A DNA stretch of 46,357 bases from Gemmatimonadaceae bacterium (GTDB lineage: Bacteria > Gemmatimonadota > Gemmatimonadetes > Gemmatimonadales > Gemmatimonadaceae): contig JBBDYC010000001.1 of assembly GCA_040901985.1 (NCBI GenBank), positions 60,486 to 106,842 on the forward strand, given 5' to 3'. The position numbers are program-made. Each line of letters opens with the position of its first letter. Within the stretch, counting starts at the first letter, position 1. Below, in pieces: positions 28,801-31,800 of the stretch.

Positions 28801-31800
28801 ACGCTGGCGCTTCTCGTCAACGCGCTCCGCGAGGAGCCGGTGCCCGGCGAGACGGAGGGCCGCACGGTGCTGGGCTTCCATCCGGCGCTCTCGCCGATCA
28901 AGGCGGGGGTCTTTCCGCTCACCAAGAAGGATGGCCAGCCGGAGATGGCCGAGCGGATTGCCGGCGCACTGCGGAAGCGGTTCAACGTCTTCTACGACGA
29001 GGCCGGCGCGATCGGCCGGCGCTACCGCCGGCAGGACGAGGCCGGCACGCCGTTCGGCGTGACGGTGGACAGCGAGTCCTCGACGAACGACGATGTCACG
29101 ATCCGCTTCCGGGATGACATGGGCCAGGTCCGCGTCTCCAGCTCGAAGGTGGGCCAGGTGATCGCCGACTATCTCGACGCCGATCATCCGCGCGCCGACT
29201 CGCGCCTGGCGGGCTGAGATCGCCGTGCCGCCGCGCGCCGCCACCGATCCCCGCGAGCCGCTCGAGCGCCTGCGCGAGCGCGGAGAGCCGTTCCTCGAGG
29301 AGATCTCCGCCGAGTATCACGCGGCCTACGCCGGCCTGAAGTCCGGCGCCGAGCTCCAGCCGATCTACCGGAAGCACGAGGCGGCGTACGACGACGAGGC
29401 GTTCGCCGTGGCGCTCGCGCTCTTCCGGGAGAGCGCGCCCACGAAACCGGTGGTGGCGCGGTCCTCCAGCGGCGGCGCCGACCTTGCCGGCCTCGGCATC
29501 TCGCCGACCCATCGCTCGGCGCGCCTCCTCGTGGATTGGCTCCTCGAGTCGCGCGTCGGGCGCGAACTTGCCCCGGTCGAGGAACGGGAGATCGCCTGGG
29601 AGGGGGCGGCGGTCGTCACGCTCCCCGACGGCACCGCCGAGCCGTATCAGCGTGTGCCGATCACGCTCGGCAACACCCGCGACGTGAAGGCGCGCCACGC
29701 GCTCGACGACGCGCGCGCGGCGCTCGTGGAGGCCGAGCTCGCACCGATCCGCCTGGAACGCCTTGAGCGCGAGCACGAGGTCGTCGAGCGGTTTGGGATC
29801 GCGTCGAACTACAACGCCACCTGGGAGGCGCTGAGCGGCGTTGCCCTCGGCGCACTGCGCACCGAGTGCGAGGCCTTCCTCCGCGACACGCAGGACCTCT
29901 GGGACGACCTCCTCCCGGACTTCCTCAAGCGCGGCCTCGGCATCACGCCGCCCGAGGCGACCCGGGCCGACGTCGCGGCGCTGATGCGCTTCCCGGAGTT
30001 CGACCCCTACTTCACCGCCGAGGCGATGGAGCGCGAGGTCCGCCGCCAGGTGACGGAGATGGGGATCAGCCCCGACGCCGAGGGCCGCGTGCGCTACGAC
30101 ACCGGCGAGCGGGAAGGGAAGCGGCCCCGCGCCTTCTGCGCGCCGGTGCGGATCCCCGACGTCGTGCATCTCGTCCTCCGCCCGCACGGCGGGCAGAGCG
30201 ACTGGATGACGCTGATGCACGAGCTCGGCCACGCGCTCCACTTCGCGAACATGGCGCGGACGCTGCCGTTCGAGTTCCGCTGGCTCGGCGACAACTCGGT
30301 GACCGAAGGGTATGCGATGCTCTTCGACCACCGCCTGAAGGATCGTGGCTGGCTGGCGCGCTACACCGGGCTCGGAAGGCGGGAACTGCCGAGGTATCTC
30401 CGCGCCGCCGGGTTCGAGGAGCTGCACTTCGTGCGGCGGTATGCCGCCAAGCTCATCTACGAGACCGAGCTGCACGGCGGCCGCATCGGATGGTCGGCGC
30501 TCCCCGATCTCTTCGTCGAGATCCTGACCAAGGCGACCGGCTTCCGCTACCAGCGCAGCGATGCCTTCGTGGACGTGGACCCTCGCTACTACGCGGCGCG
30601 CTACCTGCGGGCCTGGCAGCTGCAGGCGGTGCTCGACGAGTCGCTGCGCGAGCGGTTCAACGACGACTGGTGGCGGAACCCCGCCGCCGGTCCGTGGATC
30701 GTGGACGAACTCTTTGCGCACGGACAGCGGGAGCTGGCGGACGAGCAGGCGCAGCGCATCTCGGGCAAGGGACTCTCCTTCGCGCCGGTCGTCGCCGGCA
30801 TCGAGCGGATGGTCGGATGACACCACCGGTCGTGTATCTCAACGGGAAGTTCGTGCCGAAGTCCGAGGCGTTCATCCCGGCGGAGGACCGGGGTTTCATC
30901 TTCGGCGACGGCATCTACGAGGTGGTGCGCGTGATCGGTGGTCGCCTCTTCGCCTGGGATGCGCACGCGGCGCGGATGGCCGACGGACTCGCCGGCCTGC
31001 GCATCGGCACGGCAGGCGCCGAGTCGGCGACGCTGCGGGGCGTCTGCGAGCGGCTGGTCACGGAGAACGGCCTCACCGCCGGCGAGGCGACGGTCTACCT
31101 GCAGGTCACCCGCGGCGTGGCGCCACGGGTGCATCACTTCCCGGCGCCGAACACGCCGACCACGATCTACGGCTCGGCCTCGAAGTTCACGCCGAATCTC
31201 CCGATGCGGGAGCAGGGTGCCGCGGGGATCACCTTTGCCGACCTCCGCTGGGCGCGTTGCGACCTCAAGACGGTGAACCTGCTCGGGCCGGTGCTGGCGC
31301 GGCAGGCCGCCGCGGAGGCGGGGGCGTACGAGGCGATCCTCCACCGCGACGGGATGGTCACCGAGGGAGCGGCGACGAACTGCTGCGCCGTCATCGGCGG
31401 CGTGCTGCGGACCGCGCCACTCAGCAACTACATCCTTCCCGGCATCACGCGCGCCATCCTGTTGCCGTTCGCGAAGGACCTCGGCATCCCGGTCGAGGAG
31501 CGGGCCTTCACGCTCCGCGAACTGCCGTCGGTGGATGAACTGTTCGTCTGCGGCACGACCACCGATGTGCAGGCGATTGTCACGCTCGACGGCCGGCGGA
31601 TCGGGTCGGGTGCGCCGGGCCCGGTGACGGTCAGGCTTCGCGAGGCCTTGGCGGCACGCTTGTACGACCGATAGCGACGTGCCAATCGGGATCCCGGACG
31701 TCGCCGAATGACCCAGCGCCGCCGCATCTGGCAGCTCCCCGTCGCGGCGACACCGCCGCCGCCGGAACTGGAAGCGGAGCTAAGCGTCGTCCGCGACCTC

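Follow-up and report, generated by a model that had tools for sequence, protein, structure and literature searches.

A predicted D-amino-acid transaminase as the probable source of cell wall D-glutamate in a Gemmatimonadaceae bacterium lacking glutamate racemase matches

The window considered here, the whole stretch of DNA that was analysed, spans 46,357 nucleotides of contig JBBDYC010000001.1 in the assembly of a Gemmatimonadaceae bacterium (GCA_040901985.1). It contains a gene of the D-amino-acid transaminase type, which we call dat. The position proposed for this gene in the first-pass annotation was confirmed by translation of the window, which yields a product of 285 amino acids. The gene and its neighbours are the following:

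27844..29217, plus strand: glycyl-tRNA synthetase (Pfam HGTP_anticodon and tRNA-synt_2b), a conserved neighbour of the HExxH-dat gene pair
29225..30820, plus strand: protein of 531 amino acids with an HExxH motif and no Pfam match; its stop overlaps the start of dat
30817..31674, plus strand: dat, encoding a fold-type IV PLP enzyme of 285 amino acids, D-amino-acid transaminase type
31708..32370, plus strand: GAF-domain protein (Pfam GAF_2, E 1.5e-11), directly 3' of dat, context only

The ATG of dat overlaps the stop codon of the upstream HExxH gene by 4 nt (ATGA); hence, the two genes are probably co-transcribed and translationally coupled. The HExxH gene adjoins dat in all five loci examined in the genus and the genus nearest to it, and in none of seven loci from more distant genera. 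Its product matches nothing in Pfam or, by sequence, among solved structures; only the M3 oligoendopeptidase model TIGR02290 gave a match, which is weak and local (28.8 bits). We regard the HExxH gene as genomic context of dat. Three of the five nearer loci (L029, L030 and L032) have the GAF gene 3' of dat. No peptidoglycan gene was found beside dat in a Pfam search of the neighbouring open reading frames, a point against the role in the wall proposed below. A scan of the surrounding sequence detected no promoter-like site and three terminator-like sites, one of them inside dat, which is within chance.

The product of dat matches Pfam Aminotran_4 (PF01063) with 147.4 bits over residues 32-254. 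Its top NCBIfam model is TIGR01121 (D_amino_aminoT), with a score of 272.3 bits that lies about 5 bits under the curated cut-off of 277.45; a second model, NF005209, gives 270 bits against a cut-off of 320. Among models for branched-chain aminotransferases (BCAT) the maximum is 153.3 bits, and ADCL models give no more than 103.2, so that TIGR01121 leads any model of either kind by more than 100 bits. The closest solved structures are D-alanine or D-amino-acid aminotransferases (9pxs, E 6.9e-62; 3lqs and 1daa, 1e-58), and the alignments span the full length of the protein. Because these structures are 40-45% identical to the dat product, its fold can be considered settled. From its sequence, the protein is predicted to be a canonical transaminase of D-amino acids (Dat, EC 2.6.1.21), by far its best match.

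The active site is intact. In a HMMER alignment with 3lqs, and using the numbering of the Bacillus sp. YM-1 enzyme, residues Y31, R98, H100, R138, K145, E177, L201 and T241 are kept. We take K145 to be the catalytic lysine and E177 the glutamate that holds the PLP nitrogen, while Tyr31, Arg98 and His100 are presumably the residues that bind the alpha-carboxylate, as in the YM-1 enzyme. Differences from the Bacillus enzyme are AAT for SSS at 179-181, G for S240 and T for S243. The label "Bacillus-type", which had been attached to this protein, turned out to be uninformative: identity is 43% to a Bacillota relative, Pullulanibacillus, and 39-47% to homologues from Proteobacteria, Balneolota and Bacteroidota.

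Rival sources of D-glutamate were searched in the host genome (2,641,575 bp in 19 contigs, 99.97% complete, 0.86% contamination). Six-frame searches at E ≤ 10 gave no match to the Asp/Glu-racemase family PF01177, a model that was positive in 14 of 14 control genomes, nor to the glutamate racemase model TIGR00067, positive in 11 of 14. The earlier claim that this genome has no glutamate racemase (MurI) is therefore upheld with both models. A MurL-type epimerase, which the first-pass annotation had left unsearched, was also looked for: model NF041275 gave no match at E ≤ 10 in the host genome, with the reservation that it passed its cut-off in no control genome and thus lacks a positive control.

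The genome contains a single MurD (363.3 bits; cut-off 211.95), which lies among MurE, MurF and MurC matches on contig C10. When aligned to E. coli MurD, it shows Asp and Lys, the D-glutamate type, at positions 182 and 348, respectively. As described in PMC8788868, Glu and Arg at these two positions (Glu197 and Arg358) characterize the L-glutamate-specific MurD2. With no MurL match and D-glutamate-type residues in MurD, the searches gave no indication of a MurD2/MurL bypass.

Other enzymes of D-amino-acid and wall metabolism score above their cut-offs: Ddl (294.8 bits; cut-off 245.65), alanine racemase (Alr, TIGR00492; 229.6 bits; cut-off 168) and DapF (176.7 bits; cut-off 114.65). The PF01168 proteins of the genome are Alr, a YggS-like protein and a LysA-like decarboxylase, and no others. 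A second class IV transaminase, IlvE-like, is found at C12:40828-41523. Hence, family searches recovered the MurC to MurF enzymes, Ddl, Alr and the separate IlvE that had been listed for this genome, and open reading frames lie at the places expected for MraY and MurG, an assignment made by position alone.

From this inventory, a route can be proposed. L-alanine would be converted into D-alanine by Alr, and D-alanine and 2-oxoglutarate would then yield D-glutamate and pyruvate through the activity of Dat. D-chirality, for D-alanine and D-glutamate alike, would then originate from Alr alone. We consider that the D-glutamate incorporated into the stem peptide by MurD is most likely supplied mainly, and probably solely, by Dat. 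The substrates of Dat in vivo, the direction of its reaction, its sufficiency and its essentiality are what we infer.

Sampling of related genomes gave a less uniform picture than the loss of murI by the genus Pseudogemmatithrix that had been suggested. A PF01177 member was found in three of 51 sampled genomes of the genus (one of the 26 high-quality ones), and nearly closed genomes of 1, 3 and 7 contigs resembled the host in having none. The MurI proteins of the three exceptional species are only 32-42% identical to the type of MurI proper to the phylum, which points to later acquisition rather than retention. A Dat-type match (TIGR01121, E ≤ 1e-60) was detected in 43 of the 51 genomes, and the other eight are 71-87% complete. 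Among the 26 high-quality genomes, all carry Dat at E ≤ 1e-40, with every best match at E ≤ 1e-63; the curated threshold of TIGR01121 is passed in only nine of the 51. The genus is therefore not uniformly devoid of MurI, and the absence is not its own: neighbouring genera share it, and it turns up again in several families. The switch from MurI to Dat is older than the genus.

A survey of 301 high-quality genomes of Gemmatimonadota placed these observations in a wider frame. MurI alone was found in 133 genomes, Dat alone in 116, both in 39 and neither in 13. Stated otherwise, 116 of 129 genomes without MurI carry Dat, compared with 39 of 172 with it. Eighty-one genomes resemble the host in that they carry Dat while PF01177 is missing altogether, and in one family the contrast is complete (MurI in 0 of 49 sampled genomes, Dat in 49 of 49). 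PF01177 had been reported in eight of eight other Gemmatimonadales, a picture that the larger sample does not bear out: MurI was detected in 44 of 70 genomes of the host's family and in 172 of 301 across the phylum. These data support the view that MurI and Dat replace one another across the phylum, as two alternative solutions for D-glutamate supply with a mosaic distribution.

As related genomes are not independent, the association was also examined on a proxy species tree. Glycyl-tRNA synthetase (GlyRS), found in 295 of the 301 genomes, was used as marker. On a GlyRS tree of 83 genomes, the state of MurI changes at least 13 times, and Dat is present in 32 of 35 tips without MurI compared with 20 of 48 with MurI. 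On supported branches, there are only eight independent pairs with contrasting MurI states. On average over 200 pairings, Dat showed the inverse contrast in 3.6 of these pairs, a parallel one in 0.1, and no difference in 4.3. The trend has the expected direction, with a median p of 0.25 in the sign test, but with eight independent pairs the test cannot reach significance.

The survey bears on other possible origins of D-glutamate. One is that Dat serves mainly in scavenging or catabolism and that wall D-glutamate comes from a promiscuous enzyme, above all DapF, as in Chlamydia. The host has a DapF, and PMC5885031 describes glutamate racemization by the chlamydial enzyme and a proposal of the same activity for other bacteria without MurI. 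The 13 genomes without MurI and canonical Dat can be cited in its favour too, as something else must work there. However, if DapF, an enzyme required for meso-diaminopimelate, were enough, one would not expect Dat to be commoner in genomes without MurI, and the survey found it in 116 of 129 versus 39 of 172 (DapF itself was searched in the host genome only). Furthermore, the chlamydial case, as presented in the same paper, comes from organisms in which Dat is missing too. We thus regard a leading role of DapF as unlikely.

The 13 genomes with neither enzyme raise the possibility that D-glutamate, there as well as in the host, comes from a glutamate racemase or epimerase that has yet to be described and is not homologous to the known ones. 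Explanations sought in known families do not account for the set: MurL was matched in none of the 13, another PF01177 member was found in two, and as regards a divergent Dat, a Dat fragment was detected in one, the class IV transaminases of the others being BCAT-like or ambiguous. With 13 of 301 genomes devoid of both MurI and canonical Dat, members of the phylum may use some other route or a non-canonical enzyme, which could be present in the host as well. On the other hand, no candidate for such a racemase was found, 13 in 301 is within what completeness of 90-99% could yield for single genes, and one of the 13 carries the Dat fragment. An undescribed enzyme as the source of D-glutamate in the host seems quite improbable to us.

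Another locus of the host genome deserves description in this context:

C2:108414-109181, minus strand: GNAT protein (PF00583, 24 bits; cut-off 20.7)
C2:107282-108409, minus strand: homologue of N-acyl/succinyl-amino-acid racemases (NSAR/OSBS; TIGR01928, 319.8 bits)

The best solved relatives of the racemase homologue are N-acylamino-acid racemases (E about 1e-90). Two other assignments were considered. That of an L-Ala-D/L-Glu epimerase was rejected, since the corresponding models give only 67-70 bits, compared with 319.8 on the NSAR/OSBS model, and a role as MenC (o-succinylbenzoate synthase) is unlikely because no MenB was matched over its cut-off in the host genome. The GNAT gene lies upstream of the racemase gene, on the same strand, in all eight genomes examined, which represent four families; the genes are adjacent in seven and about 1.4 kb apart in one. 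In the known module used for comparison, a racemase of the NSAR/OSBS subfamily is flanked by a GNAT and an M20 hydrolase. In the host, an M20 peptidase gene is located about 3 kb from the pair, on the opposite strand and not adjacent.

High-scoring homologues were detected in 106 of the 116 genomes with Dat only and in 28 of the 133 with MurI only. The distribution of the pair follows the Dat-only state nearly as closely as that of Dat itself, a point against Dat as the sole source of D-glutamate.

Could the pair itself provide D-glutamate, by turning acyl-L-glutamate into acyl-D-glutamate and then D-glutamate? The relatedness to N-acylamino-acid racemases, the improbable MenC role, the conserved gene order and the distribution just described all speak for such an activity. 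The only role described for this gene set runs, however, in the opposite direction, an irreversible conversion of D- into L-forms (bioRxiv 10.1101/2022.03.03.481873), and no D-specific deacylase for acyl-D-glutamate was identified. The distribution has a contrary side as well. The pair also occurs in the 28 MurI-only genomes mentioned, and in the host's own family 18 of 26 MurI-only genomes carry the racemase homologue. In six Dat-only genomes, no homologue reaches E ≤ 1e-50, and in four others the sole homologue scores low. Just two genomes (G252 and G295) carry a homologue with neither MurI nor an intact Dat; both have another PF01177 member, and G295 has the Dat fragment. The tree-aware test found no significant link for the pair. 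We consider it very unlikely that the pair supplies the D-glutamate of the wall.

A joint reading of these patterns is speculative, and we rate it as doubtful. Gemmatimonadota would have two interchangeable D-glutamate economies, in which MurI has been repeatedly given up, always on a Dat-positive background. Their Dat genes would derive from at least three lineages, one of them grouping with alphaproteobacterial Dat, and Alr would be the sole source of D-chirality in Dat-only genomes. The GNAT-racemase module might then clear non-canonical D-amino acids made by a promiscuous Dat, the three parts forming a co-adapted system so far undescribed.

Lastly, that a glutamate racemase gene was missed through an assembly gap or divergence, Dat being redundant, is hardly credible: the assembly does consist of 19 contigs and MurI does occur in three of 51 species of the genus, but completeness is 99.97%, both six-frame searches were blank at E ≤ 10, nearly closed genomes of the genus give the same blank, and the MurI of the exceptions points to later acquisition.

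Dat thus remains, in our opinion, the probable supplier of D-glutamate in the host. MurI has been pursued as an antibiotic target, and Gemmatimonadota are an environmentally abundant diderm phylum. If Dat plays the role proposed, Dat and Alr would be the essential D-amino-acid enzymes of these organisms; inhibitors of MurI should fail on them, while inhibitors of Alr and Dat should hit especially hard. The D-glutamate "gap" in metabolic reconstructions of Gemmatimonadota would also be filled. Gram-negative bacteria are said to make D-glutamate with MurI, both in textbooks and in recent papers (e.g., PMC5885031). The survey adds a whole phylum in which about two in five high-quality genomes (116 of 301) combine absence of MurI with presence of Dat, 81 of them without any Asp/Glu racemase.

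How does the host compare with known systems? The Dat of Bacillus sp. YM-1 and the other solved enzymes (1daa, 3lqs and 9pxs) belong to the same fold-type IV PLP family, have the same length and catalyze the reaction expected for the host protein, although several second-shell residues of the YM-1 enzyme differ (179-181, 240 and 243). In Bacillus and Staphylococcus, Dat works beside a glutamate racemase, according to the account in bioRxiv 10.1101/2024.01.03.574096, which cites Pucci 1995 and Fotheringham 1998; the host has no such racemase.

Gram-negative bacteria without MurI are, in general, well documented (PMC5885031, PMC8788868). In Xanthomonas oryzae and others, MurD2 and MurL also place D-glutamate in the stem peptide of a Gram-negative cell without MurI, as PMC8788868 and PMC5808125 describe. 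The organisms described with this system lack Dat, whereas the host has Dat, shows no MurL match, and carries Asp and Lys in MurD instead of the Glu and Arg of MurD2. Chlamydia trachomatis makes D-glutamate without MurI by means of a bifunctional DapF, as reported in PMC5885031, and the host has DapF too; Chlamydiae, however, have no Dat, while in Gemmatimonadota Dat follows the absence of MurI.

In the plastid peptidoglycan of mosses, no MurI homologue is known and a D-alanine aminotransferase has been proposed to make D-glutamate, as stated in PMC9434261, where the moss MurE is also reported to be closest to a Gemmatimonadetes MurE. The moss system is eukaryotic and plastid-targeted.

A published parallel to the route proposed here bears on the claim that a Gram-negative lineage relying on Dat alone would be new. 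Thermotoga maritima provides a precedent: like the host, it is surrounded by an outer envelope layer and lacks a glutamate racemase, and according to PMC9790342, which comments on Miyamoto et al. 2022, a class IV transaminase, TM0831, is its proposed source of D-glutamate. Within class IV, TM0831 is divergent and also racemizes aspartate and glutamate, whereas the host protein is predicted to be a canonical Dat; the Thermotoga control genome gave no TIGR01121 match at E ≤ 1e-40. Of the initial proposal of a Dat fed by Alr, the absence of a racemase and the presence of a canonical Dat and of Alr stand, while the genus-wide loss and the novelty of the principle do not. The arrangement of Dat in place of MurI is already known elsewhere. 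What Gemmatimonadota add to the Thermotoga principle is scope, that is, its commonness across a phylum, together with signs of repeated replacement and a lead to a co-distributed acylamino-acid racemase module.

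The assembly that carries dat (genome G000; 2,641,575 bp in 19 contigs, 99.97% complete, 0.86% contaminated) contains no recognizable glutamate racemase. Six-frame searches at E<=10 yielded zero matches to the Asp/Glu racemase family (PF01177, Asp_Glu_race) and to the glutamate racemase model proper (TIGR00067, glut_race), while 14/14 and 11/14 control genomes, respectively, were positive. The absence of Asp/Glu racemases described in the first-pass annotation is thus borne out. Its extension to the whole genus held for 48 of the 51 species sampled, including assemblies of 1, 3 and 7 contigs, but PF01177 was present in the other three (in 1 of the 26 that are >=90% complete). 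These exceptions, G005 (locus L011, contig C54), G006 (L012, C331) and G017 (L013, C150), have a true MurI; that of G005 reaches 195.4 bits on TIGR00067 (cut-off 146.65). The three proteins share 76–84% identity with one another and only 32–42% with MurI proteins from six other Gemmatimonadota, whose mutual identity is 53–67%. Their low identity to the usual MurI of the phylum suggests that they are foreign, and that they were gained later rather than retained. Dat gave no match in G017, a genome 76% complete.

The proposed source of D-glutamate, dat, and its neighbors in the window are as follows:

29225–30820, plus strand: 531-aa protein with an HExxH motif; its stop codon overlaps the dat start
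30817–31674, plus strand: dat, an open frame of 285 codons, whose ATG runs into the TGA of the HExxH gene (ATGA)
32415–32714, plus strand: small ORF of 99 aa, downstream of a GAF gene
32711–33040, plus strand: small ORF of 109 aa, overlapping the former and followed by a gene for a MoxR-type AAA ATPase

The dat product matches Pfam Aminotran_4 (147.4 bits) and is, judging by its sequence, a fold-type IV PLP enzyme. The NCBIfam models that fit it best are those of D-amino-acid transaminases (TIGR01121, 272.3 bits; NF005209, 270), compared with 153.3 bits for the top branched-chain aminotransferase model and 103.2 for the top aminodeoxychorismate lyase model. The TIGR01121 score is 5 bits below the NCBI cut-off of 277.45, which is passed by a hit in just 9 of the 51 genus genomes. 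The solved structures nearest in sequence are D-alanine/D-amino-acid aminotransferases (9pxs, E 6.9e-62; 3lqs and 1daa, E 1e-58). When the protein was aligned to the Bacillus sp. YM-1 enzyme, Tyr31, Arg98, His100, Arg138, Lys145, Glu177, Leu201 and Thr241 were found to be retained, and the differences were Ser179-181 to Ala-Ala-Thr, Ser240 to Gly and Ser243 to Thr; the roles of these residues are known from work on the Bacillus enzyme. The other class IV enzyme of the genome, on contig 12, is IlvE-like. This agrees with the earlier identification of the two genes as a Dat-type transaminase and IlvE.

Among the loci compared, only those of the genus and the nearest genus show the arrangement GlyRS, HExxH protein, dat, GAF, two small ORFs, MoxR, and the pair formed by the HExxH gene and dat is kept in both. 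A Pfam search detected no peptidoglycan genes among these neighbors. The HExxH protein belongs to no Pfam family and has no solved homologue by sequence search; its sole match is a weak, local one to M3 oligoendopeptidases. The 99-aa and 109-aa ORFs lack Pfam matches and are 45–84% identical across the three related loci that reach that far.

The distribution of MurI and Dat was examined in 301 genomes of the phylum, all but one >=90% complete and <=5% contaminated. MurI was called with TIGR00067 at E<=1e-5, and Dat with TIGR01121 at E<=1e-55, a threshold that shuts out IlvE-like hits (about 1e-41 to 1e-47). MurI was found in 172 genomes and Dat in 155: 133 had MurI only, 116 Dat only, 39 both and 13 neither. 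Dat is therefore present in 116/129 genomes without MurI, versus 39/172 with it. These tallies include four unpublished genomes (G200, G102, G225 and G140), all MurI only.

Occurrence of MurI and Dat by family
f1 (own family): MurI 44/70, Dat 42/70
f2: MurI 98/126, Dat 30/126
f6: MurI 7/23, Dat 15/23
f7: MurI 0/49, Dat 49/49

With the broader PF01177 model, some family member was detected in 208/301 genomes, 37 of which have no MurI and another kind of Asp/Glu racemase instead. The state of G000 (Dat present, zero members of the Asp/Glu racemase family) is matched by 81 genomes.

Because related genomes are not independent, a proxy tree was built from glycyl-tRNA synthetase, a neighbor of dat. 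Its 83 tips were 68 of the 71 own-family genomes sampled (G200, unpublished, and G262 and G317, with split matches, were left out), 14 of the 126 of f2 (8 with Dat, two of them also with MurI; 5 MurI-only; 1 lacking both) and one f7 genome as outgroup. On this quick, single-gene tree, at least 13 changes of state were counted for MurI and at least 14 for Dat; Dat was present in 32/35 tips without MurI and 20/48 with it. An independent-pairs test was underpowered (8 pairs differing in MurI on supported branches; median sign-test p 0.25): averaged over 200 pairings, Dat differed in the opposite direction in 3.6 pairs, in the same direction in 0.1, and not at all in 4.3. The numerous pairs of this last kind represent loss of MurI where Dat was already present, as within genus g8. 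The genome under study is one of 11 that form a supported clade (99); they come from three genera (g1, part of g7, and g14), and all are Dat-only. Beside them stand the MurI-only G117 and G119 of genus g9 (92% support for the fork). Hence, the switch predates the genus. Loss of murI had been regarded as specific to the genus, a view that neither this clade nor the 116 Dat-only genomes of the phylum can accommodate.

The designation of the enzyme as 'Bacillus-type' did not prove useful either. Among named records, its top relatives (49–78% identity) come from Gemmatimonadaceae and Gemmatimonadota MAGs, and the next (39–47%) from Balneolota, Alpha-, Beta- and Gammaproteobacteria, one Bacillota and one Bacteroidota genome. 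When 91 Dat proteins were placed on a quick tree (two short matches dropped; several long branches), that of G000 fell with sampled g1 and g7 members in a clade of Gemmatimonadota (98). In genus g8 of the same family, Dat (L033 in G112, L039 in G146) groups with alphaproteobacterial Dat from Bosea and related bacteria (99), which suggests separate origins inside one family. Proteins from f6 and f7 form a further clade (99). Thus, as far as this long-branched tree can tell, the phylum seems to have seen more than one entry or diversification of Dat.

Other routes to D-glutamate were considered. DapF is present in G000 (176.7 bits); its Chlamydia counterpart is reported to moonlight as a glutamate racemase (PMC5885031), and by sequence the enzyme might do so here, though with low probability.

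A further route may exist within the phylum, as suggested by the 13 genomes with neither MurI nor canonical Dat (G053, G056, G059, G064, G067, G157, G169, G190, G213, G252, G280, G295 and G335). None of them has a MurL match; a different Asp/Glu racemase occurs in two and a fragment of Dat in one, and in the remainder the class IV enzymes are either BCAT-like by best score or ambiguous. Incompleteness may explain some of these cases. The possibility of a further route makes us less sure that G000 obtains its D-glutamate from Dat alone.

Another candidate lies outside the window:

Contig C2, 107282–109181 (locus L129, 4283–6182), minus strand: pair formed by a 255-aa GNAT acyltransferase, upstream, and a racemase homologue
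Contig C2, 107282–108409, minus strand: the racemase homologue, a member of the N-succinylamino-acid-racemase/o-succinylbenzoate-synthase (NSAR/OSBS) subfamily (TIGR01928, 319.8 bits)

Its top solved relatives are N-acylamino-acid racemases (E about 1e-90), and no MenB over its cut-off was found in G000, which makes involvement in menaquinone synthesis improbable. The pair is retained in 8/8 genomes checked from f1, f2, f6 and f7, its two genes being directly adjacent in seven and separated by about 1.4 kb in the eighth. GNAT, NSAR and an M20 hydrolase make up a pathway described as irreversible D-to-L amino-acid conversion (bioRxiv 10.1101/2022.03.03.481873); in G000, an M20 gene is 3 kb off and on the other strand. 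Racemase homologues (E<=1e-75) occur in 106/116 Dat-only, 28/133 MurI-only, 12/39 'both' and 2/13 'neither' genomes. The contrast between Dat-only and MurI-only is strong in f2 and f3 (20/25 vs 5/92) and in f4–f9 (62/65 vs 5/13), weak in the own family (24/25 vs 18/26), and not significant in a tree-aware test. The co-distribution may reflect shared ancestry, or the pair may be a companion of Dat that, for example, clears D-amino-acid by-products; that it is itself a route to D-glutamate is the least likely of the three readings.

For an epimerase of the MurL type, NF041275 gave zero matches in G000 at E<=10, in a search that had no positive control since the control genomes hold no MurL. The single MurD (363.3 bits; the remaining hits are MurC, MurE and MurF) is encoded within the dcw cluster and has Asp at 182 and Lys at 348 by alignment to E. 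coli MurD, positions occupied in MurD2 by Glu and Arg, whose swapping switches chirality according to PMC8788868. Positions 414 and 416 are Ser and Phe; mutation of the matching MurD2 residues is reported there to leave specificity unchanged. PF01168 matched only Alr (229.6 bits on TIGR00492, cut-off 168), a YggS-like protein and a LysA-like decarboxylase; Ddl is present. Altogether, Dat as the source of wall D-glutamate where glutamate racemase is missing, the mechanism put forward in the first-pass annotation, is the best-supported explanation and probably the right one. This state belongs to much of the phylum, not to one genus.

Synthesis of D-glutamate by Dat is known in Bacillus and Staphylococcus, alongside a racemase. 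MurI exceeds its cut-off in three of five named Gram-negative genomes with a Dat homologue; the other two, Parapusillimonas sp. JC17 (L104/G348) and Rubrivivax rivuli (L090/G350), have only a YgeA-like aspartate/glutamate racemase and no MurI over the cut-off, so the pattern is also found outside Gemmatimonadota, in these two Burkholderiales. In the open-access literature searched, no statement was found that Gemmatimonadota lack MurI or rely on Dat, and a term search of the paper describing the genus gave no hit for 'racemase' or 'transaminase'. A trench metagenome study reports that DAT is widely encoded in Gemmatimonadetes MAGs (PMC12363236). A D-alanine aminotransferase is also the proposed stand-in for the MurI missing from moss plastids, and moss MurE is reported to be nearest to a Gemmatimonadetes MurE (PMC9434261). 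The Gram-negatives named as lacking MurI in PMC5885031 and PMC8788868 are Xanthomonas and relatives (MurD2/MurL), Chlamydia (DapF), Rickettsia and Bordetella. Supply by Dat alone had been presented as new, a claim preempted by Thermotoga maritima: as described in PMC9790342, this organism is without MurI, and the source proposed for its D-glutamate is a class IV enzyme, TM0831. Both features are shared by the genome studied here, in which the probable replacement of MurI by Dat is a fresh instance of a known solution and not a new principle.
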